Source of the DNA: a phage
Sequence record: PZ154896.1
DNA length: 64,000 bases
Strand: one strand, 5' to 3'
Shown here: piece by piece, positions 22,429 to 49,308 of the stretch
Numbering within the stretch: position 1 is the stretch's first letter
How the letters are laid out: each line of letters begins with the position of its first letter
The notes under the pieces: generated by a model
The model's database searches: none
What the model was told of the DNA's origin: nothing
What the model saw: only the letters and a program-made list of their open reading frames with translations
Position numbers and translations under genes: made by a program

Positions 22429-22458
22429 ATTATACTCCAACCATCCTTGGTTGTAAAC
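22429..22458 (-). promoter_or_regulatory. sigma70-type early promoter (TTTACA-17-TATAAT) with internal palindrome
   Basis: Minus-sense TTTACAaccaaggatggttggagTATAAT; CAACCA/TGGTTG inverted repeat in spacer. Confidence 0.5.
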
Positions 22459-22462
22459 TGAT

Positions 22463-23395
22463 TTATGATTTTAATGCATTCATTGCGTTAAAAAGTTTAG
22501 AGTACTGCAACTGGAGCTTAGTAACTACTTGTTGAGCATCACGAAGCTTAGCTTGTGCTTTGTCAAGTTCAACAGACAGTTGGTCCACAGTGGCTTTGAT
22601 TTGATTATAATAGTAATCTTCGGCAGGAAGAAGTCCGTTAGAGATTTCCAGTTTAGTCGACGGTGTGCCGTTAAACATAACAGGTTGTGCTGAAGCTGAA
22701 TTAATCTTACCGATAGTCGGGGCGACAATAATTGACGCTTCGAACGTTGCATTTTCCTTTTTAAGATTTTTATAATATTCAGAGTCTTTGTGCCACCATG
22801 GCGCAGGAACCTTTTTACCAATAGATACACGAGCCTGGATAGCGATATGGCCCTTATTCTTGATAATGTCTATAATATTAAGCTCACGAGAATAAATTGC
22901 TTTAATCTGGTGAATATTATCACCTAACACTTCCAACGCTTGGTGGAATACACGAGCAACGTTATCATTCTTAGGTTTATACGTAAGAGTGAACTCGTTC
23001 TCACTGATAACCATGATTTCTAACTTATCGTAAGTATATTTCAAATGTTTCATGTTAATTGCTTGAGGACGAATACGAGAAGCAATGGCCATCAGATTGT
23101 TAAGGTTATTTCTGAACTGTTTAGCAAAATATTGTCCATAACCGCCGATACAAAAATTACGAAGTTTCTGTTTGGCTAATAAACGGCTGAACTCACCATT
23201 TTTAATGAACTCTTTAACGGGTGTGTTAGTAACGCATTCAAATTGAGTAAACTTACGAGAATTAATCCCATAATATGAACAGATTTCCTCAATCTCTTCA
23301 GGAGTCTTTACAGGCATACGGATAGGATTAGGACCTGGGGTATATGCGTTCGAGGTAAATTCTTTGATAAGTTCTCTACGTGTAATAGAAGCCAT
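22463..23395 (-). CDS. hypothetical protein with C-terminal coiled coil
   Basis: 310 aa; own upstream promoter cassette. Confidence 0.55.
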   Translation of the reverse strand: MASITRRELIKEFTSNAYTPGPNPIRMPVKTPEEIEEICSYYGINSRKFTQFECVTNTPVKEFIKNGEFSRLLAKQKLRNFCIGGYGQYFAKQFRNNLNNLMAIASRIRPQAINMKHLKYTYDKLEIMVISENEFTLTYKPKNDNVARVFHQALEVLGDNIHQIKAIYSRELNIIDIIKNKGHIAIQARVSIGKKVPAPWWHKDSEYYKNLKKENATFEASIIVAPTIGKINSASAQPVMFNGTPSTKLEISNGLLPAEDYYYNQIKATVDQLSVELDKAQAKLRDAQQVVTKLQLQYSKLFNAMNALKS

Positions 23396-23421
23396 TTTAT
23401 ATTCCTCATGTTGAAAAATTT

Positions 23422-23451
23422 ATTATACTCCAACCATCCTTGGTTGTACAT
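23422..23451 (-). promoter_or_regulatory. sigma70-type early promoter with internal palindrome
   Basis: Near-identical copy of the 22429-22458 cassette. Confidence 0.5.
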
Positions 23452-24446
23452 CATTCCTTAAGAAGTTTTACTACTTGAATAAGATTAGCTCGTTCTGTTT
23501 TATTTTTACTGTTTAAGCCTGCTAATCGTGAGATTTCATCATCAGTCTGTTGAATAGTTACATTAAGTTCGTTAATCAAAGCTTCAAAGTATTTGATTTG
23601 CTCAGCATGTTTTGATTCAAATTTCTGAACCGGAATAACGTCTTGGTTTAGTTCATCAATAAGGTCTTTAAGAGCATCTTCTTGGTTGATATCATATTCA
23701 ACTTCTTTTATTTCTTCAACGAGCTCGTCTTTATATCTAACGTCTTTTAGTCCTGGTGCTGGTCCTGAAATCTCTTCTTTAAGAGTACAAACATATCCAA
23801 TACGGTATCCAATGCCGTCTCGCTTGATATCAACTTCGTCAATAAATCCACAATGTTTAAGACCAGAGCCGATTAGGTCAAAATATCCTTGACGTCGTCC
23901 TTCAAACGTTACACGAACTACTAAGACAGTTTTACCTGCAACCTTTTGAAGCTCACATTTATAAAAGTCTGTTGAACCTGAATAACGTGGATGAGTTTTA
24001 AAGTTCATCTGACGATCTAGGCCCATTTGTAAACGTGCTGATACAGCCAGAAAACGTGTTTGGTTCTCGTTAAGATGAGCAACAATCCATTTCAAAGGCA
24101 TTTTACACTGTTCACGACCGAACAAATCAGTACGTCCTAGATTACGCAGGATGTTGTTAGAGTTAATCATCGACAGAACGTTAAGTTTATTCAGCGCGCT
24201 GAAGATTCCATCGGCCATTGATTTTCCGTAACCTTTACACGCTTTAATAAGCGCTCGCGGTAGATTAGTATAGATTTCAGACGGCATATGAAAATCAAAT
24301 TTACTAGTCAGTAATTGATGAACTTGGATAGCAATTTGCTCATAATTAAGTGCTCTGCGATCATTATGGTCTTTAAACCACACTTTAATCTGTGAAGCAC
24401 ATAAACCGTTAATTTCATGTTTTACCGCATCAGATGTAATGCTCAT
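23451..24446 (-). CDS. hypothetical protein with C-terminal coiled coil
   Basis: 331-aa ORF. Confidence 0.55.
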   Translation of the reverse strand: MSITSDAVKHEINGLCASQIKVWFKDHNDRRALNYEQIAIQVHQLLTSKFDFHMPSEIYTNLPRALIKACKGYGKSMADGIFSALNKLNVLSMINSNNILRNLGRTDLFGREQCKMPLKWIVAHLNENQTRFLAVSARLQMGLDRQMNFKTHPRYSGSTDFYKCELQKVAGKTVLVVRVTFEGRRQGYFDLIGSGLKHCGFIDEVDIKRDGIGYRIGYVCTLKEEISGPAPGLKDVRYKDELVEEIKEVEYDINQEDALKDLIDELNQDVIPVQKFESKHAEQIKYFEALINELNVTIQQTDDEISRLAGLNSKNKTERANLIQVVKLLKE

Positions 24447-24482
24447 AACTATTTCCTCAGATTGAATTGGAACTCAAAACCA

Positions 24483-24505
24483 TTATAACCCGTCCTTGGG
24501 TAAAG
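24483..24505 (-). promoter_or_regulatory. putative early promoter (TTTACC-17-TATAAT)
   Basis: Minus-sense TTTACCcaaggacgggtTATAAT. Confidence 0.4.
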
Positions 24506-24508
24506 CGT

Positions 24509-25036
24509 TTATGCGTGAACCGTCTTTAAACGTTCTTCAAATTTACGAAGAGTACTAATACGTTCTGATTTCTGTTTTGTATAGTTTGCAATACGTTCTG
24601 AAGTGAGAGCGTATCGTTCGTTTACTGTTTCTTTCATGAAGTCAGGGATTTCACGAGAAGCTTTAATTTCATCAAACTTATCGAGTACTGCCTGGTCTTC
24701 AGCGATTAAATTTTCGTACATCTCGATATCTTTCTTGATAAACTCGATATCTTCCTGGGTTACTTTGGATAAACGAGATGCTTTATCCTTTTTGTACTGC
24801 TCGTTAGTTTCACGAGACCAGAATAATGTACGTTTTTTGTTAGTGTTTTTGTAGACTTCCACAATTCCAACTGAATCGATGATAGCAATCCAATTCCAGC
24901 GAGATTTGAAAATCTGACCTCCGTCCACGGTAATCTCGTTACCATAAGCAACGTCATTAAAGAACTTGCTTTGTGCTTCAGATTTAAATTTACCGTCGTT
25001 ATAATTTACCAGGTTGAAAATATCTTTAGCGTTCAT
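24509..25036 (-). CDS. hypothetical protein
   Basis: 175-aa ORF. Confidence 0.5.
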   Translation of the reverse strand: MNAKDIFNLVNYNDGKFKSEAQSKFFNDVAYGNEITVDGGQIFKSRWNWIAIIDSVGIVEVYKNTNKKRTLFWSRETNEQYKKDKASRLSKVTQEDIEFIKKDIEMYENLIAEDQAVLDKFDEIKASREIPDFMKETVNERYALTSERIANYTKQKSERISTLRKFEERLKTVHA

Positions 25037-25054
25037 GTTTTACCTCCAGTAGTT

Positions 25055-25093
25055 GATAGGTCTATAATAACACAACCATAGACCTTGTAAACA
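25055..25093 (-). promoter_or_regulatory. early promoter in AGGTCTAT/ATAGACCT palindrome (GTTTACA-17-TATTAT)
   Basis: Family B cassette; see findings. Confidence 0.5.
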
Positions 25094-25094
25094 A

Positions 25095-25382
25095 CTAAAA
25101 GAAACTTTTTTCGGTATTTTTTCCACTGAACCAAACCGATTTCGGAATTTTCTGTAATTTTTCAGATTTAAGTTTCTCTTCCTGTTCTTTCTTATATGCA
25201 TCCTTGTCGTACTGGAACAACTCTAGGGCATTCTTTTGTAGACGGTCTAAGGTAATTAAGGCTTTAGTTTTTCCTTTCAAGGAAGAGTCCTGGCGAACCT
25301 CCTCGCTATATTGCATCGTAGAACTAACCATACGATGAGCATACAGTTCTACTGCTGCTTTAATTTTTTGCATAAAATCCAT
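25095..25382 (-). CDS. hypothetical protein
   Basis: 95-aa ORF. Confidence 0.45.
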   Translation of the reverse strand: MDFMQKIKAAVELYAHRMVSSTMQYSEEVRQDSSLKGKTKALITLDRLQKNALELFQYDKDAYKKEQEEKLKSEKLQKIPKSVWFSGKNTEKSFF

Positions 25383-25520
25383 AACATATCCTCTTTGATT
25401 TGTACAACATTATTTTTAAATAGTTCTATGCCCTCAGTAGGTTCCTGGTGTCCTTCTTTGAGGTAAGCCATATGATTATTCATCTTTATGGCTTTTGTTA
25501 CCTCAGAACTTCCTATAAGC

Positions 25521-26522
25521 TTATTTCAGTAAAGTTACTTCAGAGATTTCCTCCCAACCATCTTTATCAGTTGAAATAAAATCTGCTACATAAAGAGCCG
25601 TACGTAATGATACATTGCGAAGACGAGATACGTTAGCCTTCATCCAGGACAATGCTTTATACGTTTCTGCATCTGTCAGACCACGTTTCTGCATCATGTC
25701 AGTAGATAATATTACGTCTTCAACTCGAACCATAATCTCTTCATTAGAGTGTACTCCAAGGTCGAGATACACTGAACGAGATACTAAAGCTTGAAGGTGT
25801 GGGGCAAGTTTCGAACCGCGTTCTAACTCTTTATCGATATCAACGTTTGTAATGAAAACGATAGTACCTTCAAACTCAAATTCTTTATCAATACCCTTAT
25901 CATCGAGATAAGATGACGCAGTGCTCCAGCAAACTTTGCGTTTATCTCCAGTATCTAATGCTGCTTTAAGAAGGTTCAAGATGTCCATATCTGAGAATAC
26001 GTCAACGTCGTCGATTAAGAGAACGCTGTCTGCATCACGGTTGAGCCAAAGTTGTTCGTAAAGGCCGATACCAGAGATTTTACCATTAATGCTTTTATAT
26101 TTGATGAAACCGTTATCATTAGCATTATTAAGTGCTTTATCCAGAGAATACGTCTTACCAATACCAGCTGCACCTGAAATAATGAGTGAACGAATTTTAC
26201 CATCGATAATGCCATTCGTCATCATGTTCATTACTTTAAAGCGTTTGTTGATACGAGTTTTCATATCTTCAGTGCTTTCAACGACTGCAACCGGTGACGT
26301 CTCAACTCCTTCCATTACGATGTCTGATTTGAAGACCCATACTCCACGTTCAGAACCATCAATCATAACGAAAATTTTACCATCACCTAAGTGGGAACAT
26401 TCAGGATTAAGCTTTGCTGGGAACCATGTCTTTGTGGCAACATAAGAACCAGAGATTTCGTTATTACGATAGATACCTTTTTTGATTTGAACGTTGAACA
26501 TTTTATTCTCCAATTTACTCAT
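25521..26522 (-). CDS. P-loop NTPase
   Basis: 333 aa; Walker A SGAAGIGKT and Walker B LLIDDVD. Confidence 0.65.
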   Translation of the reverse strand: MSKLENKMFNVQIKKGIYRNNEISGSYVATKTWFPAKLNPECSHLGDGKIFVMIDGSERGVWVFKSDIVMEGVETSPVAVVESTEDMKTRINKRFKVMNMMTNGIIDGKIRSLIISGAAGIGKTYSLDKALNNANDNGFIKYKSINGKISGIGLYEQLWLNRDADSVLLIDDVDVFSDMDILNLLKAALDTGDKRKVCWSTASSYLDDKGIDKEFEFEGTIVFITNVDIDKELERGSKLAPHLQALVSRSVYLDLGVHSNEEIMVRVEDVILSTDMMQKRGLTDAETYKALSWMKANVSRLRNVSLRTALYVADFISTDKDGWEEISEVTLLK

Positions 26523-26530
26523 TTCGTTTC

Positions 26531-26568
26531 GATAGGTCTATAATAACATGTTTAAAGCAAAAGTAAAC
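26531..26568 (-). promoter_or_regulatory. early promoter cassette (family B)
   Basis: GTTTAC-17-TATTAT followed by AGACCTATC arm. Confidence 0.5.
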
Positions 26569-26570
26569 AA

Positions 26571-26789
26571 TTATTTGAGACGAGATTTTTTGGTAAGAGG
26601 TTGAAAGAACACTGCTTTACCGGCTGGGGTTAAGGTGACTCGTAATGCATTACCGATTCCTAAGGATGCTTTAACTAAACCTTTAGCTTTCAGTTCACCG
26701 AATGCTTGACGTTGGTCTGCATCACGAGTGTTAACCATAAGACCTTTATCACCTGCTTCACGAATCATTTCTAACATTTTGGTTTTCAT
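26571..26789 (-). CDS. small hypothetical protein (72 aa)
   Basis: Start moved to ATG 26787-26789 (MKTKMLEMI); the ORF-track start lies inside the promoter cassette. Confidence 0.45.
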   Translation of the reverse strand: MKTKMLEMIREAGDKGLMVNTRDADQRQAFGELKAKGLVKASLGIGNALRVTLTPAGKAVFFQPLTKKSRLK

Positions 26790-26808
26790 TTTGTTCTCCT
26801 CTTGTTTT

Positions 26809-26847
26809 GATAGGTCTATAATAACATATCCTAAAAGCATGTACACT
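26809..26847 (-). promoter_or_regulatory. early promoter cassette (family B)
   Basis: GATAGGTCTATAATAACA palindrome half plus GTGTAC -35-like element. Confidence 0.4.
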
Positions 26848-26897
26848 ACTTTTTAAAAATATTTTAACCCCCTAAAGGGACCCGAAGGTCCCCACAT

Positions 26898-27179
26898 TTA
26901 CTTATCGCACTTAGCAACATAATTAGGCATATCACAGAATACGGAGCGAGTAACTACTCGGCCCTTTGACCATGCTTCAGTTGCTTGTCCGGCTGTGCTA
27001 TTAATATAGCTTGATCTAATGTTCTCAATACCCTGAGAATGTGATGCGTTTACCGAACCATTAGAAGACCCAGAAGTCTGGTTACCACCAGCTCCTGTAC
27101 TACCGCTGGCTGCACCCGTGGTAGCACCAACAGAGAATGCCATCATTACTGCGAATAAACCAATTACTAATTTTTTCAT
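26898..27179 (-). CDS. secreted Gly/Ser-rich protein
   Basis: 93 aa; N-terminal signal peptide MKKLVIGLFAVMMAFSVGA; low-complexity GSTGAGGNQTSGSS; two Cys near C-terminus. Confidence 0.5.
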   Translation of the reverse strand: MKKLVIGLFAVMMAFSVGATTGAASGSTGAGGNQTSGSSNGSVNASHSQGIENIRSSYINSTAGQATEAWSKGRVVTRSVFCDMPNYVAKCDK

Positions 27180-27210
27180 ATTTACCTCAAGTTAATGGTT
27201 ATTTATCTAC

Positions 27211-28200: not shown

Positions 28201-28212
28201 TTAGCCTTATAT

Positions 28213-28671: not shown

Positions 28672-28680
28672 AATAATTCC

Positions 28681-29223
28681 TTATTTCAAAGTCGGGATAA
28701 TAGAATCAAGATAAGCTTTAAGAGCAACTGCTTCATCTTTGTCTAATGTAACGATATGTTGACGAAGGTCATCAATTTGACGAATAACTACGACATCACC
28801 ATCTTCATAAGAAGGATTAACGCCTAGGACTGTTGTATAGTCAGGGCGGTCCTGACTTGTAATAAAAGCATTACGGCATTTAGCCCATTGAAGTTTGGCC
28901 TTTTTGGCTGTTTCAGATTCCATGAATTCTTTCACTTTAGCGACGAATGTTTTCCAATTATTAATAGAAAAACATTCGTCTTCAGTTTCGATATTAACCC
29001 CACTATAAAGTCCATGATAAAAACGAACTTGAAGGTCTTCACCAATGTTAATTACAGATGCATGTCCTGGTGGATTGAGTTTCAAAATCTTGTCCAGTTC
29101 CATAGGAAGAATAGTAGCAGCATCATCTTCTTGTGTCAGAACATACACATAACCACGTTTTTCGATACATAAATCACCAAACAACTCGGTTGTTTCAATT
29201 ACAGTTTTCATATTATTCACCAA
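28681..29223 (-). CDS. hypothetical protein
   Basis: 180-aa ORF. Confidence 0.5.
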   Translation of the reverse strand: MVNNMKTVIETTELFGDLCIEKRGYVYVLTQEDDAATILPMELDKILKLNPPGHASVINIGEDLQVRFYHGLYSGVNIETEDECFSINNWKTFVAKVKEFMESETAKKAKLQWAKCRNAFITSQDRPDYTTVLGVNPSYEDGDVVVIRQIDDLRQHIVTLDKDEAVALKAYLDSIIPTLK

Positions 29224-29392
29224 TTAAAGTTTCAACAAAATTCACCAAAGCATTCTGGCAAGCATCAACCTGATTTTCATAAAAGTCTTCGTTATCATTT
29301 ACCGCATGATAAGCTACATCATTCAAATCTGAATCGGCTTCACGTAAGTCACGGATAAGGTCCATCAATTTATTAGCTTGTTCACGGGTCAT
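29213..29392 (-). CDS. small hypothetical protein (59 aa)
   Basis: MTREQANKLMDLIRDL...; promoter cassette directly upstream; below ORF-track cutoff. Confidence 0.4.
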   Translation of the reverse strand: MTREQANKLMDLIRDLREADSDLNDVAYHAVNDNEDFYENQVDACQNALVNFVETLIGE

Positions 29393-29517
29393 TTTACCAT
29401 ACTCGTTTCAATAAGATTCACTATGCCGTTTACCATGTTATAAGTAAACATCGGATAATTGTATTGTACTACAACATAAGCGATAAGCAAAAGTTTCATT
29501 TTGTTCTCCATTTGTTT

Positions 29518-29557
29518 TGGTAGGATTACTATATCATAGTCCTACCAAGACGTAAAC
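29518..29557 (-). promoter_or_regulatory. early promoter cassette (family A variant)
   Basis: GGTAGGATTA...TAGTCCTACC palindrome around -10, GTTTAC -35. Confidence 0.5.
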
Positions 29558-29950: not shown

Positions 29951-29967
29951 AACGTTCTCCTCTAGTA

Positions 29968-30007
29968 AGTAAGGACTACTATAACACAACCTGAGGAGAA
30001 GTAAACT
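29968..30007 (-). promoter_or_regulatory. early promoter cassette (GTTTAC-17-TATAGT)
   Basis: Minus-sense GTTTACttctcctcaggttgtgtTATAGTAGTCC. Confidence 0.45.
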
Positions 30008-30014
30008 GATAGAT

Positions 30015-30045
30015 GCCAAAAAGCCCCAACCGTAAGGAAGGGGCT
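30015..30045 (-). terminator. rho-independent terminator
   Basis: AGCCCC...GGGGCU stem followed by UUUUUGGC on minus strand, just 3' of rI. Confidence 0.55.
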
Positions 30046-30051
30046 AGTAAA

Positions 30052-33579: not shown

Positions 33580-33596
33580 TTTTGATTTCTCCTCTA

Positions 33597-33638
33597 GTTG
33601 ACAGGTCTATAGTAACACATCTAGAGGAGAAGTAAACA
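33597..33638 (-). promoter_or_regulatory. early promoter cassette (GTTTAC-17-TACTAT) flanked by 9-bp inverted repeat
   Basis: CTCCTCTAG ... CTAGAGGAG inverted repeat; upstream of regB. Confidence 0.5.
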
Positions 33639-36053: not shown

Positions 36054-36166
36054 TTTGTTCTCTCTAGGTTTAGACCATTCCATGGCCCATGAATTGTCCA
36101 TTTTCCGTATTTACCACTCCAAGTAATTATGAATATACTATCACAATTCTAGGAGAAAGTAAACTG

Positions 36167-36510: not shown

Positions 36511-37089
36511 TTAATTACCACGGGCTGCATTAGCAACGGCATAAGCGTACTGAACATTAGCGTCTTTAAACGTACCTTTAGAGGTATCTATTTCTGCCTT
36601 AAAGCCGCCTTTAGCCATAACATCGGCAAATTCTTTACGGAAAGCCATTGCATCAAGACCTTTCCATGATGATTTGTGCTTGGCGAATTCAAGACCAGCG
36701 TAGTTGACAGCCTTAGCTAATTTATTATCAATAACCCATTTACCGGCTTTAGGCACAAACTTCGGTCCTTTTTGTTTAGAGAACAGTTTTAAATTCCAGC
36801 GACGAAGATCACTGTCGGCTTTAACAAAAGCTGCATCTAAGTTACTAGCAACAACATCTTCAATATGAGCAAATTTAAGTCCGTCAACTTCAATATTTAG
36901 ATCGTTACGCCAGCGAAGTCCTTCCCAAGCGAAGGCTTTAAAATCAGAAGCTTTTGTGGCTAGATATCGTTCAAGTGGAGCAGTTTTAGGGTCAAAGCCG
37001 TTTCCGCCACGATAAGTCCACTCGTCCTTATTAATGCCTTGAGCTTTTCCTGCAAAGGCCTCGGCGATAAATTCTTTATATGTTTTCAT
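36511..37089 (-). CDS. ipIII: internal protein III-like
   Basis: 192 aa, N-terminal MKTYKEFIAEA; size matches T4 IPIII. Confidence 0.75.
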   Translation of the reverse strand: MKTYKEFIAEAFAGKAQGINKDEWTYRGGNGFDPKTAPLERYLATKASDFKAFAWEGLRWRNDLNIEVDGLKFAHIEDVVASNLDAAFVKADSDLRRWNLKLFSKQKGPKFVPKAGKWVIDNKLAKAVNYAGLEFAKHKSSWKGLDAMAFRKEFADVMAKGGFKAEIDTSKGTFKDANVQYAYAVANAARGN

Positions 37090-37110: not shown

Positions 37111-37150
37111 GATAGAGTAATTATACCATATTAATACTTAAGCGTAAACT
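37111..37150 (-). promoter_or_regulatory. early promoter cassette (family A variant)
   Basis: GTTTAC -35 and TATAAT -10 in a degenerate GATAG palindrome. Confidence 0.45.
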
Positions 37151-37833: not shown

Positions 37834-37849
37834 AATTTCCTCCAAGTAG

Positions 37850-37890
37850 TTGATGAATGTATAGTATCAAAGTCCTTGGAGGAAGTAAAC
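37850..37890 (-). promoter_or_regulatory. early promoter cassette (GTTTAC-17-TATACA-like)
   Basis: Minus-sense GTTTACttcctccaaggactttgaTACTATACAT. Confidence 0.4.
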
Positions 37891-38658: not shown

Positions 38659-38692
38659 AATACCTCCCACATTTATAGGAGGTATTTATTAC

Positions 38693-40326: not shown

Positions 40327-40632
40327 TTATTTTCCTCGACATTCTTTAATGAAATTTTCTAGATTGGTAGATTCAATAGCTTTTTTACGAGCTTCCGCGT
40401 GTTCTTCTTCAGACAATTTACATTTATAATTGACCCAGACATTATGGTCAAAACTAGTCGTGGCATATAATAACAATGCTCCAACGAATAGCAAAAACGG
40501 TGATAAGAATACAAAACCAGGAACACCATCCATATCGTAAGCCTTTTGTAATACTGCAACAGAAAGGGCTGCGTAAAAAGGTGATGCAAATATTGTTAAA
40601 AGACCAATTCGGTTGGTTTCGCCTAATTTCAT
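40327..40632 (-). CDS. membrane protein, FIxECR C-terminal family
   Basis: 101 aa; two transmembrane helices; ends ...NLENFIKECRGK. Confidence 0.55.
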   Translation of the reverse strand: MKLGETNRIGLLTIFASPFYAALSVAVLQKAYDMDGVPGFVFLSPFLLFVGALLLYATTSFDHNVWVNYKCKLSEEEHAEARKKAIESTNLENFIKECRGK

Positions 40633-40651: not shown

Positions 40652-40691
40652 AATAGGACTACTATAACATAGTCCCTATAATTATGTAAAC
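40652..40691 (-). promoter_or_regulatory. early promoter cassette (family A)
   Basis: AATAGGACTAcTATAACATAGTCCCTAT palindrome centred on -10 TATAGT; GTTTACA -35. Confidence 0.5.
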
Positions 40692-41688: not shown

Positions 41689-41928
41689 TTAAATTTCACG
41701 ACATGCGATATCATATTCATCCCAGAGGTCATCGTGTGAAGCCTCTACCAATGGAACGATTGTACCATTTATGTCTTCATTATAAGGGCAAATTGTACAG
41801 TGCGCATCTTCGAATCGAATGCCTTTGTGTTCAGATTTTTTATAACGCATATCGAATATCTTTGCAAACTTTTCACGAGTAATGGTTTTAGCAACCACTT
41901 CGGTTCCAACACTTTCGTAATAAATCAT
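41689..41928 (-). CDS. hypothetical protein
   Basis: 79-aa ORF with Cys/His pairs (HCTICPYNED). Confidence 0.5.
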   Translation of the reverse strand: MIYYESVGTEVVAKTITREKFAKIFDMRYKKSEHKGIRFEDAHCTICPYNEDINGTIVPLVEASHDDLWDEYDIACREI

Positions 41929-41947
41929 TGTGGACTCCGTTTAATTT

Positions 41948-41987
41948 GATAGGACTACTATAACATAGCCCTATCTTGTTGTAAACT
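41948..41987 (-). promoter_or_regulatory. early promoter cassette (family A)
   Basis: GATAGGACTAcTATAACATAGcCCTATC palindrome plus GTTTAC. Confidence 0.5.
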
Positions 41988-41990
41988 GTT

Positions 41991-42188: not shown

Positions 42189-42197
42189 ATGATTTCC

Positions 42198-42470: not shown

Positions 42471-42479
42471 AGTGATTCC

Positions 42480-42785
42480 TTAGCACAACGCAGAAGACGA
42501 AACCCAAGCACCTTCAGTAATAACGTAACCATTACCTTCACGCTTAACATCGCCACCATTATTTTCAATTTCATTTTTCATCCACTGGGATACGATTTCA
42601 CCCTTAGGATAATAAGTACGACCGCTACCATAATCACCTACAGAAAATGATACGGCGTATTGGTCTGCGATCTTTGTTGCTTCTTCTTCGATACGTTCAG
42701 CTTGATTCAGAAGTTTATAAATTGCATCTGAAGCGGATTTGGCATCATTAAACTCTGGTACTTTAATTTCAATAATCTTACTCAT
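42480..42785 (-). CDS. small protein, C-terminal W-x-SS-x-x-C family
   Basis: 101 aa; ends ...GAWVSSSALC. Confidence 0.5.
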   Translation of the reverse strand: MSKIIEIKVPEFNDAKSASDAIYKLLNQAERIEEEATKIADQYAVSFSVGDYGSGRTYYPKGEIVSQWMKNEIENNGGDVKREGNGYVITEGAWVSSSALC

Positions 42786-43141
42786 TTTCTACATTCCTTA
42801 ATAAAGTTTTCTATTGTTTCATTTTCACGTCTAGCTAGGAGTTCATTATAACTAATCATTTGAGAAGCGTAAACCTTTTTATTTTTCTTGTTATGGTTTA
42901 TAAAATCGTAGTAAAAATAGACTACAGTACAAAATGATGCGATGGATGCAAAGGCTTGGGTATACCGTAAGTCCTGCCATTGGTCTGTGAATCCACCAGT
43001 GTTCCCTATAAATCCTAACACAACGCCGTCAATAAGAAATCCAACTAATCCAAAGGCAAATCCCATGCCAATACTCATAATAAAAATTAGAATGTTCTCA
43101 CCAAGAGAAGGCCATACGGTTAAGAGTTGAGGCTTTTGCAT
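42782..43141 (-). CDS. membrane protein, FIxECR C-terminal family
   Basis: 119 aa; transmembrane helices; ends ...IENFIKECRK. Confidence 0.55.
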   Translation of the reverse strand: MQKPQLLTVWPSLGENILIFIMSIGMGFAFGLVGFLIDGVVLGFIGNTGGFTDQWQDLRYTQAFASIASFCTVVYFYYDFINHNKKNKKVYASQMISYNELLARRENETIENFIKECRK

Positions 43142-44101: not shown

Positions 44102-44129
44102 AAGGAGGACCTGAGTCCTCCGTATTATT

Positions 44130-44723
44130 TTATTTCAAAGAGTTAATATATTCTTGTACATCGGCAGAAGTGGTTTCGACACCAGCTGGAGTGCCATTGA
44201 ACGTTTCAACACGAGTCAGAGTGTCTTCGATATCAACCTTAGTCAGTGCAGCGATTTCAATTACATCATCAGCCGTAGAGATACCAAGGGCATTAGCTGC
44301 TCGAGTTTCACGAATGTATTCGAGTTTGATTGCCAGATTCTGACGAGCATCGTCAAGTTCAACCACCTTACGAGCAATTTCAATTCGCATAGCGGCATAC
44401 CCGTCAGCTTTTGTATTAAGTTGTTCGGCAGTTCGACGATACAGAAGACCAAGCTTGGCATGCATGGTAACATCTTGACCTTCAGCCAGGAGCTTACGAA
44501 TTTCACGTTCCTTAGAAGCGGCTTGCTTATTCTTTTCATTAACAAGTTCGCGAATACGTTTTTCTTCATTAATAGATTTAACAGAAGCCGTTTTTAGTTC
44601 TTTGATTTGGGTAATCAACTTATCTGCAGCTGCGTTATACTGTTCTTCGACAGTCAGATTTTTAGCCATAGCAGTACCCAGTTTAGTGCGGATGAATTCA
44701 ACAAGTTTCTTCAGTGTGTTCAT
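44130..44723 (-). CDS. coiled-coil protein (tentatively PspA/IM30-like)
   Basis: Start at ATG 44721-44723 (ORF-track start is TTG); long heptad-rich helices; PspA resemblance is impression only. Confidence 0.5.
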
Positions 44724-44758
44724 ATTATTACCTTTCAATTGGTGGTTTATTATCCAAC

Positions 44759-44794
44759 GAGAGCATTATACTCTGCTCTCAAGAGTTTGTACAT
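44759..44794 (-). promoter_or_regulatory. early-promoter cassette (duplicate of 14125-14160)
   Basis: GAGAGCA-ttatact-cTGCTCTC palindrome around TATAAT. Confidence 0.4.
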
Positions 44795-45021
44795 TATTTT
44801 TTAATCAAGTTGACATAAAATTCTGCATCTTCAGGGTGCATGCCTTCGCAGTATTCTTCAACCATGAACTTCTTAACAGCTTCATAAGGGCCGCTCAGAT
44901 TAAGTTCAGTTGTCCAGAACTTGGAATCTTGGACTGAATCGATACGAACTTCAGGGTGACGGTTGCGAATAACTTCTTCAGTGTATTCATAATCAACGAC
45001 ATCAATACTAACTTTAGCCAT
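44794..45021 (-). CDS. hypothetical acidic protein
   Basis: 75-aa ORF. Confidence 0.5.
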   Translation of the reverse strand: MAKVSIDVVDYEYTEEVIRNRHPEVRIDSVQDSKFWTTELNLSGPYEAVKKFMVEEYCEGMHPEDAEFYVNLIKK

Positions 45022-45040
45022 TTTGTGTTCCTCTTGTTTT

Positions 45041-45079
45041 GATAGGACTACTATACCATAAACTTACTTAGATGTAAAT
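45041..45079 (-). promoter_or_regulatory. early promoter cassette (family A, truncated palindrome)
   Basis: GATAGGACTACTATACC plus TTTACA-like -35. Confidence 0.4.
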
Positions 45080-45232
45080 TATTTCAACGTCACCTTTAGC
45101 TGCTTTATAACCTTCAGCCCAAGATACAACAGAGTTTTTATCCGAGGATTCAAATTCAGGCATTGGGCTTTCACCAATATTCACACAGTATGTTTCTTCA
45201 TTTTCATCGAACCAAATAATTAAAGTAGTCAT
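45068..45232 (-). CDS. small hypothetical protein (54 aa)
   Basis: Start moved to ATG 45230-45232 (MTTLIIWFDENEE), downstream of the promoter cassette. Confidence 0.4.
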   Translation of the reverse strand: MTTLIIWFDENEETYCVNIGESPMPEFESSDKNSVVSWAEGYKAAKGDVEIIYI

Positions 45233-45252
45233 TTTGTTTACTCCTCTGTAGT

Positions 45253-45290
45253 TGATAAGTCTATAGTAACACCGTCCTTGGTGCTTGTAC
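45253..45290 (-). promoter_or_regulatory. early promoter cassette (family B)
   Basis: GATAAGTCTATAGTAACAC plus TGTACA -35-like. Confidence 0.4.
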
Positions 45291-45291
45291 A

Positions 45292-45795
45292 TCATTTATT
45301 TTTAATTTTGCAAATTTTTTCTGCTTCAGCAATTGCAGCGTCAATGATGCTTTGTGCAATTTTATTACTAGTTGACCTGGCAATCACACTAAGAACAATT
45401 TCTTTTTCTTCACCACCCCAACCCCAAGTCCTTTGTTCGTGGGTACCTTTAACTACAGCTGAAACTTCAACAGAACGTCCACCATCAGAAGTTTTAACAT
45501 CTACAACCCAATCACCGTCTTTCTCTTCTACCCTTGATTTATCCCAAGAAATACTAATATATGATTCACTGTCAATAGAAGTCGCCGGGTTTTTCTCTAC
45601 CGTAAGACCTTCACTTTCCAGCCATTCAATTGTATTTGCGCATAAATCCGAAGAACACCTAATCGGAAACCGGCAAGATTTTTCACCTTTAGCTGCAGCG
45701 TTATACATCTTTTCTAAAATACGCTTTTGCACGTTTTTAAAAATAGTTTCAGCAGATTCTTCAGATTTTTTATTCAGTTCAGTGTAAAGACTCAT
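45292..45795 (-). CDS. hypothetical protein
   Basis: 167-aa ORF. Confidence 0.5.
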   Translation of the reverse strand: MSLYTELNKKSEESAETIFKNVQKRILEKMYNAAAKGEKSCRFPIRCSSDLCANTIEWLESEGLTVEKNPATSIDSESYISISWDKSRVEEKDGDWVVDVKTSDGGRSVEVSAVVKGTHEQRTWGWGGEEKEIVLSVIARSTSNKIAQSIIDAAIAEAEKICKIKNK

Positions 45796-45814
45796 AATAT
45801 TCTCCCCATGTTTT

Positions 45815-45853
45815 GATAGGTCTATAGTAACACATCTAGGGAAGAAGTAAACA
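45815..45853 (-). promoter_or_regulatory. early promoter cassette (family B)
   Basis: GTTTAC-17-TACTATAGACCTATC. Confidence 0.5.
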
Positions 45854-45904
45854 ACTTTTTCAGTAAGTTATAGACCCCCTAATGGGGACCGAAGTCCCCA
45901 TTCT

Positions 45905-46531
45905 TTACTTACGAGTTTTTGCATACTGAGCAGCGTCAGCAGCCAAACGACCTGCCTGACGAAGTTTTTCTTTAATCGCATCGTGAAGTGGTTGAGTATA
46001 CTTCAAACCTTCGATAGTCAAATAAAGACGATAAAGGTCTGGGGTATCAAGGTTGTTGATATGTTGGCCATTACGAAGACTGTTGAATTCACGAACGAGT
46101 GAAGATGTATCGGATTCAATATCGCGAACAAGCGAAGATAGTTGTTTATATTTTTTTTCCAGGCTAGAAGTATCAAACTTAAGAGCAGGAGCTTTAGGAG
46201 TTGCTTTTACTTCCGGCTTAGGCTCAGGTTTTGCTATTGCTTTAGGGGTCGCAGGTTTAGGAACGGTAGGAGCAGGTTTTACTTTAGGCGAACCCGATTT
46301 AGCAGAAACACCGCCACTAACAATATCTTTGAACGCTTTAGAAGCTCTGTAATATTCTTTTTGGCTGGAAGTGTCGATACCATACATGGCTTGAACGTTT
46401 TTGAAAAACTCTGTACTAGTTTTTGTACCAGAAATAGCATCGTAAGCAGCTTGCCATTTCTCTTTTGTCATACGTACACCGGCTTCGGTGATTACTTCCG
46501 TTTCGGCTAAAAATTCATTAAAAGTATACAT
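45905..46531 (-). CDS. capsid-targeting-sequence-like protein (internal-protein candidate)
   Basis: 208 aa; N-terminal MYTFNEFLAETE resembles the MKTYQEFIAEA targeting sequence; Pro/Lys/Ala-rich central repeat; late promoter upstream. Confidence 0.55.
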   Translation of the reverse strand: MYTFNEFLAETEVITEAGVRMTKEKWQAAYDAISGTKTSTEFFKNVQAMYGIDTSSQKEYYRASKAFKDIVSGGVSAKSGSPKVKPAPTVPKPATPKAIAKPEPKPEVKATPKAPALKFDTSSLEKKYKQLSSLVRDIESDTSSLVREFNSLRNGQHINNLDTPDLYRLYLTIEGLKYTQPLHDAIKEKLRQAGRLAADAAQYAKTRK

Positions 46532-46566
46532 TGATGGTCCTTAGAAAGTAGGTTTATTGTTTACTA

Positions 46567-46574
46567 TATTTATA
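46567..46574 (-). promoter_or_regulatory. late promoter TATAAATA
   Basis: Exact TATAAATA on minus strand about 36 nt upstream of ATG 46531. Confidence 0.45.
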
Positions 46575-46604
46575 CAAAAAAGCCCCAACCTTTCGGAAGG
46601 GGCT
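46575..46604 (-). terminator. rho-independent terminator (GAAA loop)
   Basis: AGCCCC-UUCC-GAAA-GGUU-GGGGCU followed by UUUUUU on minus strand, downstream of the tRNA region. Confidence 0.55.
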
Positions 46605-46647
46605 ATATACCTTGTCGGGGTTTCCACCTACTAAGGCAAGTGTTTGT

Positions 46648-46739
46648 ACGAAACGCCGGGATTCGAACCCGGTTATTAAGCAGTTGACGCTACTCAATAT
46701 TTTTAAAAGGCCATATCTCGACCATATCCGAACGTTCCG
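46648..46739 (-). other. tRNA-like element / probable tRNA pseudogene
   Basis: Canonical T-arm CCGGG-UUCGAAU-CCCGG and 7-bp acceptor pairing, but no canonical D or anticodon arm in the 92-nt span. Confidence 0.3.
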
Positions 46740-46907
46740 TCAAAAACGCTACTCGGCTTACGGCAAAGATATTTCCTCGAATCGATAATTCTTTGCGCCG
46801 TTTCTGCTGTGATGTAAGGGGATATTAACAAATCATAAAGATTTATTAAGACCAGTCCTTACTCAGGGAACATCAGTCCGACGACTTGCCGGTAGCGACC
46901 CGGCTTC

Positions 46908-47252
46908 TTATTTTGACATATCATCAATTTGTTCTCTACGTCTACGCCATAGATTAATTACTTCATCAACACATTCAGCATTTGGTATATGACGACAATA
47001 GTATAGTGATTCGCGTTTCTGGAACCGATGTTGTAATGGAATTTCGTTTAAAAGGTCTTTACGGTCAAAGTATTCAAAACTAGTTAACCCGGAACGGTTT
47101 TTAAGAAACTTCCAATGTCCGAATTCATTTTGAAAATAAACATAATCAGCGTGTTGATATAACGAATTAATCAACCGGTCGGAAATAACTGTATCCTGTT
47201 CATTAAAATAAAACGTTAAATCATGAACTACCAGATAAATATTACCTTTCAT
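46908..47252 (-). CDS. hypothetical protein
   Basis: Start set at ATG 47250-47252 (MKGNIYLVVHD) to avoid overlapping tRNA-Arg. Confidence 0.5.
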   Translation of the reverse strand: MKGNIYLVVHDLTFYFNEQDTVISDRLINSLYQHADYVYFQNEFGHWKFLKNRSGLTSFEYFDRKDLLNEIPLQHRFQKRESLYYCRHIPNAECVDEVINLWRRRREQIDDMSK

Positions 47253-47270
47253 ATTTTCCTCACTTAAAGT

Positions 47271-47347
<77 letters not shown>

Positions 47348-47350
47348 GAT

Positions 47351-47425
47351 TGGTGACCCTGGCTGGTTTCGATCCAGCTACCTATCAGTTATGAGCTGAC
47401 AGCTCTCCCATTGAGCTACAGGGCC
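47351..47425 (-). tRNA. tRNA-Met (anticodon CAU; could be Ile2 if lysidine-modified), CCA encoded
   Basis: Manual fold: acceptor GGCCCUG/CAGGGUC, D-stem GCUC/GAGC, anticodon loop CUCAUAA, T-arm GCUGG-AUCGAAA-CCAGC; 3 nt from tRNA-Arg. Confidence 0.8.
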
Positions 47426-47504
47426 TTAATAACTTTCTATTATGAAAGGCACTTTAGAGCACCTTTGGTAATAGAGGGTATGAATTAATAATAACACATA
47501 ATTC

Positions 47505-48020
47505 TTAAAGCAAATCAATCATTTTAACAGTCGGCAAAACGATTTCTTCTTCAATATAAGCAAATTCAACACATTCAACTACACGCAAGAAATCATAATC
47601 ATAATATTCAGAAGCATGGCCAAGAATATCAATGAGACCTTCTGATACTAAATATCCATTCTCATGGAACAGGTCAAATACACGCGATTCGTCTTCTTCA
47701 GATTTATTACCAAGGTCGACTTCAATATCAAAGACCTTTTTAATGAATTCTGGATAAAGCTGGTCTGAGAACAATCCTTCAACCAAGTATTCATAGATTA
47801 AAAGCGAACAATCACTGAATAGTGTATTACCACAGTAACGTTCAGCTTTAGTGCTGGAATGACGGCTCTTAAATTTCTTCAAAAGATATTTAAACTGTTG
47901 GAGCTCATGCTCTTCTACACCAAATAATGTTTTGGTTTTATAGTTGTCGCCGTCATTTTCCCAAGTAGTGACATCAATTACGTAACCTTTAGGAATTGTA
48001 CTGCCTAAACAAATATTCAT
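47505..48020 (-). CDS. hypothetical acidic protein
   Basis: 171-aa ORF. Confidence 0.5.
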   Translation of the reverse strand: MNICLGSTIPKGYVIDVTTWENDGDNYKTKTLFGVEEHELQQFKYLLKKFKSRHSSTKAERYCGNTLFSDCSLLIYEYLVEGLFSDQLYPEFIKKVFDIEVDLGNKSEEDESRVFDLFHENGYLVSEGLIDILGHASEYYDYDFLRVVECVEFAYIEEEIVLPTVKMIDLL

Positions 48021-48024
48021 TTAC

Positions 48025-48315
48025 TCACCGTACCATATTAATGTAATTATATTCAATGCAACATAATTTCAAAGGATTCTTGAAAATATCATATTCAAGA
48101 GGACCTTTTTCTGTTTCAATAAAGAAATCAAAGTTCACACTATTAAATTTGCGGTCTTCCCAAAGTAATTTAACCTGTGAAGATGAACGGTCGACGTAAA
48201 CCTTTTCAACTTCAAAGTGGGTCAAAATACCATAGTAATCGACTAGTGCTTTAGCTGCAGCTCGGTCGCTTTCATATCCATTCTCAACGGATTTTACCTT
48301 AGCATAAAGAATCAT
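48025..48315 (-). CDS. hypothetical protein
   Basis: 96-aa ORF. Confidence 0.5.
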   Translation of the reverse strand: MILYAKVKSVENGYESDRAAAKALVDYYGILTHFEVEKVYVDRSSSQVKLLWEDRKFNSVNFDFFIETEKGPLEYDIFKNPLKLCCIEYNYINMVR

Positions 48316-48317
48316 TA

Positions 48318-48701
48318 TTAACCTTTATCAACAATAGTATGTGTATGGGCATTTACGATTTGCCACCAGTCAAAACTATCGCCAAATCGTTTTGATTTAT
48401 TGTCTTCAATAATTTGGCGTAATTCATCTTCAGTAGCGGCTTTCGCGATTAAATCAGCATATCCACCACGAGGATAATAATTATCACCTGCAAAAAGTAA
48501 AAAGTTTGGTTTAATATTATTAAACTCTTCAAGAGTAATAACTGTTCCACCAGGTTGAACAATATCTACATAACTATATCCTAATTTTTGAGCAGCATCT
48601 ACTGCTTCAAGCAGGGTATCATGAGCCCATCCAATTTGGCAATCTGGCTTTTCAGATGGATTAGCCTGATAATCCGCGTACACTTTATACATTCTATTCA
48701 C
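48318..48701 (-). CDS. hypothetical protein
   Basis: 127-aa ORF. Confidence 0.5.
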   Translation of the reverse strand: MNRMYKVYADYQANPSEKPDCQIGWAHDTLLEAVDAAQKLGYSYVDIVQPGGTVITLEEFNNIKPNFLLFAGDNYYPRGGYADLIAKAATEDELRQIIEDNKSKRFGDSFDWWQIVNAHTHTIVDKG

Positions 48702-48879
48702 CTTTAGAAATTTTATCCATAACGATAGCGATTAAACCGATTAGAAATGCTACTACCAATGAGATAGAATTTTCTGTTGTTGTCAGTAGTCCACAAATGA
48801 ATCCTACAAACATCGAAAAACTAAAAGCCATTGAAGCAATTACTACAGCAACATTACGAATCAGTTCAGCGCGTTTCAT
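48694..48879 (-). CDS. small membrane protein
   Basis: 61 aa, two hydrophobic helices. Confidence 0.45.
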   Translation of the reverse strand: MKRAELIRNVAVVIASMAFSFSMFVGFICGLLTTTENSISLVVAFLIGLIAIVMDKISKGE

Positions 48880-48898
48880 TTTATTCTCCTCAGTAGTT

Positions 48899-48938
48899 GA
48901 TAGGGTAATAGTATCACTACCCTATCTAAAAGTAAACG
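48899..48938 (-). promoter_or_regulatory. early promoter cassette (family A variant)
   Basis: GATAGGGTA...TACCCTATC palindrome around -10; GTTTAC -35. Confidence 0.45.
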
Positions 48939-48948
48939 GTTTTATAAA

Positions 48949-49257
48949 CTATTTTATTCCACGTGATGCAATCGTATTCTGCCGTTTAACGCCAGTTTGT
49001 TTAAAGTCATGACTGTCGATTTGATCGGTACGAGCAACTCCGAACGATGATTTAATCTTAGCTTTAGATCCTTTAGTTATAGAAATAAACATCTCAGAGG
49101 ACCCTTTCTTAAAGTCTGATGCAGATACTTCAACGCCGTTCTTAGCAAGTGACCTCAGAATTGCATCTGCGTACTCATCATCAAGACTCGCTTGAGTATT
49201 AATAACGAATGTCTTTGGCGCAGCTGCTTCACAGATAAATTCTTTAAATGTTTTCAT
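48949..49257 (-). CDS. internal protein I-like (capsid-targeting-sequence-containing)
   Basis: 102 aa; N-terminal MKTFKEFICEAAA; located next to 57B as ipI is in T4. Confidence 0.6.
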   Translation of the reverse strand: MKTFKEFICEAAAPKTFVINTQASLDDEYADAILRSLAKNGVEVSASDFKKGSSEMFISITKGSKAKIKSSFGVARTDQIDSHDFKQTGVKRQNTIASRGIK

Positions 49258-49269
49258 TTTATTTTCCTA

Positions 49270-49308
49270 ATTAATTTTGATAGGACTACTATAACATAGT
49301 CCTATCAG
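49270..49308 (-). promoter_or_regulatory. early promoter cassette (family A, perfect 10-bp inverted repeat)
   Basis: GATAGGACTAcTATAACATAGTCCTATC plus GTTTACA; minus-sense GTTTACA-17-TATAGT. Confidence 0.5.

Follow-up and report, generated by a model that had tools for sequence, protein, structure and literature searches.

The 64,000-nucleotide (nt) stretch of phage DNA in sequence record PZ154896.1, called the window below, carries on its minus strand a long series of promoter cassettes, many of which contain an inverted repeat. This raises the question of where the two arms of such a repeat meet: in the DNA of the promoter itself, or in an RNA that started further upstream and reads across it. 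Our answer is that the pairing most likely acts in read-through RNA and not in DNA. We consider it somewhat more probable than not that the cassettes are sigma70 promoters of the PeSL kind (a strong sigma70 promoter combined with a stem-loop), that their arms pair in read-through RNA, that one class masks the ribosome-binding site and in this way gates translation, and that the cassettes recombine with each other.

The window belongs to the Mosigvirus group of RB69-like T4 relatives, with an identity of about 96-98% to known genomes. A 10-kilobase (kb) stretch matched Mosigvirus genomes with about 96% identity across 91-97% of its length, and Shigella phage phi25-307 showed a 98.4% match to an 8-kb stretch. 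Up to about 52.8 kb the genes belong to the minus strand, and beyond this point to the plus strand. According to a map comparison the region with the cassettes is equivalent to the T4 interval nrdC-tk-vs-regB-denV-e-tRNA genes-ipI to 57B. This region is variable and packed with small early genes, and the cassettes precede small, often uncharacterised open reading frames (ORFs). Within these same-strand gene arrays there is one promoter per 0.3-3 kb, and terminators are sparse.

A preliminary description of this DNA had reported more than 25 early promoters embedded in palindromes of three sequence families. With regard to the promoters this was confirmed. Exact matches to GTTTAC-N16-18-TATAAT number five, every one on the minus strand, where 0.04 are expected, and a graded scan with GTTTAC/TGTAC-N16-18-TAnnnT revealed 25 strong minus-strand sites; in a separate scan no plus-strand site reached the same cut-offs. 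A generic TTGACA/TATAAT scan is useless in this A/T-rich genome (67 sites, 65 expected, no enrichment), so the signal belongs to the T4-type motif only. From all intergenic gaps between 8.6 and 49.3 kb we curated 29 minus-strand cassettes, 21 of them within positions 22429-49308, and each is named by the coordinate of its first -10 base. In 20/29 cassettes the ATG follows 20-25 nt after the inferred start site, with correct orientation and a ribosome-binding site present, and the gaps holding promoters measure 55-70 nt. At least two sites, 14861 and 42850, lie within coding sequence, and 21454 overlaps a gene junction. Most cassettes also have an A-rich UP-like region at about -40 to -45, for example aaaacaGTTTAC or aaaaagttGTTTAC (read by eye, unscored). 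The elements resemble the published T4 and RB69 consensus, with GTTTAC at -36 to -31, A-rich -40s, a TAnnnT -10 and C at -3 to -1 (PMC1524935). The same study predicted 57 early promoters for RB69, many of them upstream of novel ORFs, and contains no mention of inverted repeat, palindrome or hairpin terms (Nolan et al. 2006, PMC1524935). Two details had to be modified: the earlier list of -10 variants missed TACTAT, which is common among the cassettes, and not all of the promoters look early. Sites 8629, 13416 and 24487 resemble middle promoters in having a GCTTTA box of the type recognised by MotA, the activator of T4 middle genes. The prediction that the cassettes are T4-type sigma70 early promoters plus a few of middle type is thus supported by their sequence.

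The palindromes are less general. Some inverted repeat was found in about 20 of the 29 cassettes and none in about nine. The repeats quoted earlier, TGATAGGACTA/TAGTCCTATCA, AGGTCTAT/ATAGACCT and GAGAGCA/TGCTCTC, are all present where they had been described. Three discrete families were rejected, because the window contains at least ten kinds of arm, including GATAGGAAGA, GATAGGGTA, GGTAGGA, GATGTGGT and TTCTCCTC, which grade into each other. The cassettes can be grouped by layout. In eleven cassettes the arms flank the -10 element (8629, 13416, 14136, 14436, 25069, 29533, 40666, 41962, 44770, 48913 and 49293). In four others, and weakly in 45829, the spacer between -35 and -10 pairs with the ribosome-binding site (15564, 29983, 33614 and 37866). 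A small hairpin wholly within the spacer is present in 22434, 23427, 24487 and 45268; the CAACCA/TGGTTG repeat of the first two, previously counted as a family bracketing the -10, is of this type and not centred on the -10. All other cassettes (about nine) have no repeat, including 26545 and 45055 with a right arm only. The right arm, ..AGACCTATCAA or ..AGTCCTATCAA, is part of an extended promoter consensus that occurs with or without a left arm. This conserved ..CCTATC arm agrees with the RB69 study, in which C is preferred at -3 to -1 (PMC1524935).

Pairing was measured as the longest perfect stem that the 19-nt spacer can form with the segment from the third -10 base to +45. A stem of at least 7 base pairs (bp) was detected in 12/29 cassettes (binomial p = 6e-9). 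The controls gave 5% (random positions), 4.6% (shuffled spacers) and 7.4% (each spacer combined with the downstream part of another promoter). RNA folding gave -14 to -18 kcal/mol for seven cassettes (z -2.2 to -4.8). The arms would occupy positions which the promoter leaves free: the 5' arm the -35/-10 spacer, the 3' arm either about -7 to +3 or the ribosome-binding site.

These layouts are also found in other phages, namely T4, Dhakavirus, Jiaodavirus, Gelderlandvirus and RB49. With the same stem scan of the equivalent region (random positions 4-6%), stems of at least 7 bp were found at 8/19 promoters of T4 (Tequatrovirus), 5/22 of JS10 (Dhakavirus), 12/22 of LH01 and 10/27 of phi25-307 (both Mosigvirus), 2/10 of JIPh_Kp122 (Jiaodavirus) and 6/14 of Melville (Gelderlandvirus). 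For an orthology test, promoters of other genera were picked solely by orthology of the downstream gene. The orthologue had a helix in 16/20 cases when the window promoter has one and in 3/11 when it has not (Fisher p = 0.006; random 11%). Single cases demonstrate how the helix is retained. Cassette 49293 (49278..49317, upstream of ORF 48949-49257) consists of GTTTAC-N18-TATAGT with 11-bp arms TGATAGGACTA/TAGTCCTATCA (49297-49307/49278-49288) that flank the -10 with a loop of 8 nt (RNA minimum free energy -17.7 kcal/mol, z -4.8), and its T4 orthologue has TGATGAGGTA/TACCTCATCA. The arms TTGGTAGGACTA/TAATCCTACCAA of cassette 29533 (29514..29557, upstream of ORF 29389-29499; GTTTAC-N18-TATAGT, one mismatch) correspond to AGTTGACAAGATTA/TAATCTTGTCAACT in T4 and ATGATGAGATA/TATCTCATCAT in Melville. 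The 55.2 orthologue promoter 14136 (14124..14160; ATGCAC-N18-TATAAT) has arms TGAGAGCA/TGCTCTCA with GAGAGCA/TGCTCTC, which read GAGAGA/TCTCTC in LH01, GGGACCA/TGGTCCC in dhabil and AGGAGATT/AATCTCCT in Kp122; four genera retain a palindrome at this place, with different arms. Likewise, the orthologues of 48913 (48899..48937, upstream of ORF 48694-48879; GTTTAC-N18-TACTAT, arms GATAGGGTA/TACCCTATC, loop 10) differ in their arms in four other genera and keep the pairing; in T4 the left arm is shifted next to the -35 and still pairs. Cassette 44770 (44759..44794, upstream of the e.6-like ORF 44130-44723; ATGTAC-N18-TATAAT) has GAGAGCA/TGCTCTC (44774-44780/44759-44765, loop 8) and its Dhakavirus orthologue GAGGACA/TGTCCTC. 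At the middle-type promoter 8629 (8607..8647, upstream of the 45.2 orthologue; GCTTTA, N12, TATAAT) the arms GATGTGGT/ACCACATC flank the -10, and in the T4 counterpart AGAGATT/AATCTCT encloses both the MotA-like box and the -10. In the T4 cassette at L002 position 6452 the 5' arm has moved within the spacer and the pairing is kept.

Even the layout itself can change. The nrdC.8 orthologue promoter 25069 (25058..25092; GTTTAC-N17-TATTAT) has -10-flanking arms AGGTCTAT/ATAGACCT (25078-25085/25058-25065, loop 12), and the promoters of T4 and Dhakavirus use pairing between spacer and ribosome-binding site; for regB the latter layout is found in the window and the -10-flanking one in Kp122. Since arms differ between orthologues yet still pair, the pairing itself is under selection. 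It is conserved in evolution: compensatory changes preserve it in five genera of T4-like phages, which makes the stem a selected feature and more than a recombination handle. Variants of the 49.3 kb cassette were also sought among viral contigs, with four loci only, too few for substitution analysis.

The 5' arm precedes the expected start site in every cassette. The hairpin is therefore absent from the cassette's own transcript and possible only in read-through RNA. The preliminary description had placed the arms mostly upstream of the start site, which is correct for the 5' arm, and had concluded that they do not act as RNA; this conclusion ignores read-through from upstream promoters. T4 early transcripts do extend into downstream genes (PMC2988021), and the same geometry is part of the RNA mechanism of T4 e, soc, 49 and I-TevI (PMC3014915), so the upstream position of the arms is no argument against RNA.

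What such a hairpin could do is illustrated by the regB and denV orthologues. At the regB promoter 33614 (33582..33637; GTTTAC-N17-TACTAT) the spacer TTCTCCTCTAG pairs with CTAGAGGAGAA, which holds the ribosome-binding site, and at the denV promoter 37866 (37837..37890; GTTTAC-N18-TACTAT) the spacer TTCCTCCAAG pairs in the same way with CTTGGAGGAA (minimum free energy -17.8 kcal/mol, z -3.8). Partition-function folding predicted an unpaired fraction of the ribosome-binding site of 0.00 in read-through RNA and 0.64 in the own transcript for regB, and of 0.00 and 0.37 for denV. The corresponding values are 0.01 and 0.68 for 15564 (15538..15587; GTTTAC-N17-TAAGAT, spacer TCCTCAATAG, partner CTATAGAGGA with the ribosome-binding site), and 0.00 and 0.71 for 13416 upstream of the gene 55 orthologue (13403..13446; TGCTTTA box, arms ATAGGTCT/AGACCTAT around TATTATGATATAAT). 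For these cassettes and for 23427, masking is predicted in read-through RNA only (at most 0.01 unpaired, against 0.37-0.71 in the own transcript), a degree of masking reached by at most 2% of shuffled upstream sequences. Masking is predicted to be partial for 25069 and 29983. Apart from one T4 helix and a possibly spurious hit with a 12-nt loop at window position 26134, all strong long-range helices include the ribosome-binding site (25 helices with a score of at least 8; 15 distinct arm pairs, nine genomes), and the loop between spacer and ribosome-binding site measures 17-31 nt in regB, denV and others. The consensus fold of the regB leaders of 8 phages is the helix between spacer and ribosome-binding site, with 4 compensated pairs. 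For denV, TTCCTCCAAG/CTTGGAGGAA of the window is replaced by TCTCCTGTAG/CTACAGGAGA in T4 and JS10, and in AnYang and Kp122 the 5' arm occupies -6 to -1 and still precedes the start site. The class with spacer and ribosome-binding-site pairing is therefore hard to read as anything but RNA, and the folding models predict a read-through-masking subset that is conserved with compensatory changes in regB and denV.

According to the model which we prefer, host sigma70 RNA polymerase would read the T4-type early and the few middle-type promoters, and RNA from upstream promoters would cross the cassettes and carry the hairpin. In the masking class (regB, denV and others) the hairpin would cover the ribosome-binding site, and translation would occur mainly from the gene's own early-promoter transcript. 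In the -10-flanking class a free-standing hairpin of -14 to -18 kcal/mol would form between the upstream stop codon and the next start. It would most likely serve as an attenuator, a 3'-end stabiliser or a folding insulator of the read-through RNA, and the choice between these is a guess.

An established precedent for the masking part exists in T4, where the RNA of genes e, soc, 49 and I-TevI is controlled by a hairpin that masks the ribosome-binding site and contains a late promoter (PMC3014915). In both systems the ribosome-binding site pairs with a 5' arm upstream of the start of the proximal promoter, and long transcripts would be silent and proximal ones translatable. In the known cases, however, the embedded promoter is late (TATAAATA) and the silent RNA early, whereas the embedded promoters of the window, at the orthologues of regB, denV, nrdC.8 and others, are early and of sigma70 type. 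The logic would be reversed, with translation confined to the early-promoter transcript; this would be a variant of the mechanism and not a member of the set. The classical T4 gene e arrangement is also found in the window. The leader of the gene e orthologue (38659-38692, minus strand) reads ACCTCC-TATAAATGTG-GGAGGT, with the late promoter in the loop of a ribosome-binding-site hairpin. At 19386-19424 (minus strand) the late motif TATAAATA is followed by ACCCTTA...TAAGGGT before the gene 49-like ORF 18912-19385, which matches the T4 gene 49 hairpin.

The second relevant system are the PeSLs of RB49 and phi1, in which a strong sigma70 promoter is combined with a stem-loop mostly between -35 and -10 or overlapping the -10; positions upstream, across the -35 and downstream of the -10 are described as well. 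They are concentrated in variable regions in front of small genes, where they mediate recombination and give rise to excised mini-circles (PMC2839356). PeSLs of PST and T4 follow TTTACW-N17-TAYWAT with AGNA-loop-TCNT stems, and others are known from nt-1 and KVP40, including middle-promoter PmSLs (PMC4122927). Our scan of RB49 gave the same spacer-internal and -10-straddling stems as published (Arbiol 2010, PMC2839356). The label PeSL-like used in the preliminary description is supported. The window cassettes share the strong sigma70-type promoter with an A/T-rich upstream region, the stem-loop in the spacer or overlapping the -10, and the ribosome-binding site and ATG on the 3' side. Like PeSLs they are dense before small variable-region genes, their copies can recombine, and breakpoints between close relatives fall inside them. 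Arms such as TAGGAC/GTCCTA fit the AGNA-loop-TCNT stems of T4 and PST (PMC4122927). Based on promoter, stem-loop position, genomic setting and the link to rearrangement, a classification as PeSLs is supported. There are differences: Mosigvirus was not among the genera analysed in these papers (PMC2839356, PMC4122927), and the stems of the window are A/T-rich and variable instead of G runs followed by C runs. PST stems are placed "just upstream" of the promoter in the published legend (PMC4122927), whereas in the window and in T4 many straddle the -10. Neither the subclass with ribosome-binding-site pairing nor the compensatory conservation between genera appears in the accessible text of PMC2839356 and PMC4122927.

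Several observations weigh against the RNA model, mostly in the -10-flanking class. Start positions, read-through RNA and every functional consequence are inferred from the sequence. For the -10-flanking hairpins no positive RNA signature was found in the sequence. G-T and A-C mismatches are equally frequent (8 and 9 internal, 28 and 28 beside the helices), so G-T is not favoured, although this test is weak since many "internal" mismatches are chance extensions of the helix. In 24/31 of these hairpins folding is better for the sense than for the antisense strand, but 58% of the genomic background behaves the same way (p about 0.02, marginal), and in the other hairpin class the advantage is absent. 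The class as a whole leaves the ribosome-binding site open. Averaged over all 29 promoters, masking of the ribosome-binding site in read-through RNA does not exceed that with shuffled upstream sequences (0.345 against 0.398, standard deviation 0.031), and only a subset is specific. The arms have a tight geometry, which could be a constraint at the level of DNA: the loop measures 8 nt in 30/53 cases, and the repeat is centred on the 5' edge of the -10. Hairpins of this kind were found only at promoters and at none of the promoter-less gene junctions, which fits a promoter-linked DNA role. Such a role is possible for the -10-flanking repeats. Finally, an alignment of 15 cassettes with an 8-nt loop showed changes on both sides at 10/12 stem pairs and 87% paired cells, against 32-49% with the partner columns slid, but these cassettes had been chosen for having helices and we therefore lean mainly on the orthology test.

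The alternative that survives best is that the stem-loops are terminators or attenuators of upstream transcription, as proposed for the RB49 PeSLs, and have no translational role. One RB49 PeSL stem-loop indeed cut downstream lacZ about as much as a strong terminator (PMC2839356), and as with intrinsic terminators, stable hairpins of the window stand in the intergenic gap just 3' of the stop codon of the upstream gene. But the -10-flanking hairpins lack a U-run, their right arms being followed by A-rich sequence (AAAAC or AACTAC), which is a further point against the RNA model as well. They are thus not canonical intrinsic terminators, and the terminator role proposed for PeSLs is doubtful for most stems of the window, which have no U-rich tail. 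The ribosome-binding-site class is not terminator-like either, with loops of 17-31 nt that cover this site. We regard this explanation as unlikely. Intrinsic terminators in the strict sense were rejected, with 0 cassette hairpins among the terminator-like sites of a window scan; true T-run hairpins are separate elements, found upstream of some promoters (canonical terminators at about 30020-30048, 44104-44121 and 46575-46603). The first and the third of these (minus strand) are the same terminator, AGCCCCTTCC(TTAC/GAAA)GGTTGGGGCTTTTT, which suggests that terminator cassettes are duplicated too. In addition, a G+C-rich hairpin whose loop is of the UUCG type (GGGACCTTCGGGTCCC and relatives) precedes a promoter closely at three places, 26877-26892, about 45881-45902 and about 5245-5262 (minus strand). 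Two of these hairpins are followed by TTAGGGGG and the third by TTTGGAG, a layout of terminator then promoter.

Less probable still is the explanation given in the preliminary description, that the palindrome is a DNA-level element, either a cruciform or a dimeric binding site at the -10. Extrusion, or the binding of a dimer encoded by phage or host, would turn the early promoter on or off, for example in shut-off. This reading would account for the tight arm geometry, for the restriction of the -10-flanking hairpins to promoters and for the missing G-U preference, and the shut-off of early promoters is not completely understood (PMC3014915). It is opposed by the diversity of the arms: one genome holds ten or more different arm sequences, orthologues keep pairing instead of sequence, and no conserved half-site common to the cassettes was found among the window arms and their orthologues, which argues against a sequence-specific dimeric binding site or an operator. 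Half-site centres would also be about 18 bp apart, off the helical repeat. The switch of orthologues to ribosome-binding-site pairing would be meaningless in DNA, and about nine of the 29 promoters have equally good -35 and -10 boxes without any repeat. As a rule, extrusion of a cruciform is expected to be very costly when the centre is long and unpaired, and these centres measure 8-12 nt, or 17-31 nt in the ribosome-binding-site class.

That the pairing has no function, being a by-product of cassette copying and gene conversion or of template-switch "correction" of near-palindromes in replication, seems quite improbable, for although cassette exchange is clear from near-identical copies, hybrid cassettes and breakpoints, and arm families are common to paralogous cassettes, copying accounts for shared sequence and not for complementary arms, orthologues of other genera pair with different arms in 16/20 cases against 11% by chance, the 5' arm can shift within the spacer (the T4 cassette at L002 position 6452), and cross-paired spacers reach only 7.4%. 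Two further candidates were rejected: the stems are too short for an RNase III site, and hairpin promoters of the phage N4 type do not apply because T4-like phages use the host sigma70 polymerase.

The mobility of the cassettes, already suspected from two near-identical copies, was corroborated. The copies at about 14.1 and 44.7 kb are identical at 52/54 positions. Compared with two close Mosigvirus relatives, 13/38 synteny breakpoints are located within 40 nt of a -10 where 5% would be expected, with the reservation that breakpoints of whole-gene insertions and deletions tend to fall between genes anyway. LH01 lacks 26549-26804 and has instead a hybrid cassette with the 5' partner from 26823 and the 3' partner from 26545; it also lacks 45050-45226, and here a hybrid joins 45268 and 45055. 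Because the cassettes resemble each other they could serve as sites of homologous recombination, and small genes between them would be inserted, deleted or swapped. A promoter-cassette swap between close relatives is seen in LH01 (L004 positions 7230 and 6899, compared with 48913 and 49293 of the window): the gene that follows cassette 48913 in the window has the TGATAGGACTA/TAGTCCTATCA cassette in front of it in LH01. As the twin cassettes are palindromic, their opposite strand reads promoter-like, with GTTTAT-N16-TATACT (44745-44772, plus strand) and TTTTAT-N16-TATACT (about 14111-14138, plus strand), and is a possible antisense promoter.

More tentatively, the masking cassettes may reflect a rule that extends across the Tevenvirinae. 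Early-promoter spacers would then double as the 5' arm of an RNA hairpin, and the fate of the downstream gene would be set by the promoter from which the RNA originates. In read-through RNA regB, denV, nrdC.8 and small genes would be masked and the GGAG target of RegB hidden, so that translation would be limited to the first minutes; the -10-flanking layout would be a second solution, maintained by compensatory evolution. Orthologues that switch layouts hint at a related role of both classes. If true, this would be a simple, testable rule by which T4-like phages restrict some proteins, the RegB nuclease among them, to the immediate-early period, and it would extend the classical T4 late-promoter mechanism to early promoters. 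Since spacers would not be free sequence, changing them in phage engineering may alter the expression of downstream genes. The finding of PeSL architecture in another T4-like genus is useful for annotation and unsurprising. What may be new is the compensatory pairing across genera and the masking of regB, denV and others by an early promoter within a hairpin; neither was found in the T4 reviews and PeSL papers as far as their accessible text goes. A literature search yielded no usable T4 start-site or 3'-end maps and no earlier descriptions of palindromes in T4 early promoters.

The remaining cassettes complete the catalogue; all are on the minus strand. Three more have -10-flanking arms. Cassette 41962 (41948..41986, upstream of ORF 41689-41928) contains GTTTAC-N18-TATAGT and arms GATAGGGCTA/TAGTCCTATC with one G-T position, and 14436 (14422..14460) contains ATGTAC-N18-TATTAT and arms GATAGGAAGA/TCTTCCTATC with a loop of 10. 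In 40666 (40656..40691, upstream of ORF 40327-40632) GTTTAC-N19-TATAGT is combined with arms ATAGG(G)ACTA/TAGTCCTAT and a bulged G. This extra G in the left arm leads to the 19-nt gap, whereas close relatives have 18 nt and perfect arms, and the promoter may be weakened in the window.

Two further cassettes pair the spacer with the ribosome-binding site. In 29983 (29955..30006; GTTTAC-N17-TATAGT) the spacer TTCTCCTC pairs with GAGGAGAA, which holds the ribosome-binding site, across a loop of 30; TTCTCCTC and similar spacers resemble the anti-Shine-Dalgarno sequence of rRNA. In 45829 (45800..45852, upstream of ORF 45292-45795; GTTTAC-N17-TACTAT) there is only weak pairing, with one G-U, between the spacer TTCTTCCC and the ribosome-binding site GGGGAGAA, and a terminator-like hairpin, GGGGACTTCGGTCCCC, precedes the cassette. 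The spacer-internal hairpins are CAACCA-agga-TGGTTG in both 22434 (22429..22458; GTTTAC-N18-TATAAT) and 23427 (23422..23451; ATGTAC-N18-TATAAT), CACC-aaggac-GGTG in 45268 (45263..45292; ATGTAC-N18-TACTAT) and ACCC-aaggac-GGGT in the middle-type promoter 24487 (24482..24505; GCTTTA MotA-like box, N12, TATAAT).

A right arm without a left one is present in 45055 (45050..45079; ATTTAC-N18-TATAGT, TAGTCCTATC), 26823 (26818..26846; GTGTAC-N17-TATTAT, AGACCTATC) and 26545 (26540..26568; GTTTAC-N17-TATTAT); 26823 has no stable RNA fold (z = 0.2). The cassette at 36135..36164 (GTTTAC-N18-TAGTAT) has a degenerate palindrome, and a T4 cassette that is similar to it, and may not be orthologous, has a perfect 14-bp palindrome TCCTAGAATTGTGA/TCACAATTCTAGGA around the -10. 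At 37120..37149 (upstream of ORF 36511-37089; GTTTAC-N18-TATAAT) the inverted repeat is not convincing. No inverted repeat was found at 42850 (42845..42874; GTTTAC-N18-TATAAT, promoter-like, in coding sequence upstream of ORF 42480-42785 with its ATG at 42785), 21454 (21449..21478; GTTTAC-N18-TATAAT across a gene junction), 20065..20094 (GTTTAC-N18-TATGAT, in a 119-nt gap upstream of ORF 19614-20024) and 14861 (14856..14885; GTTTAC-N18-TATAAT, in coding sequence).

Two further features of the region were observed. Inside ORF 28681-29211, at 28942-28980, two 19-nt arms of 89% complementarity form a near-perfect palindrome around a 1-nt centre. The genes for tRNA-Arg(tct) and tRNA-Met(cat) are found at 47271-47347 and 47351-47425 (minus strand) within a 252-nt gap, and the same pair is annotated in related Mosigvirus genomes.

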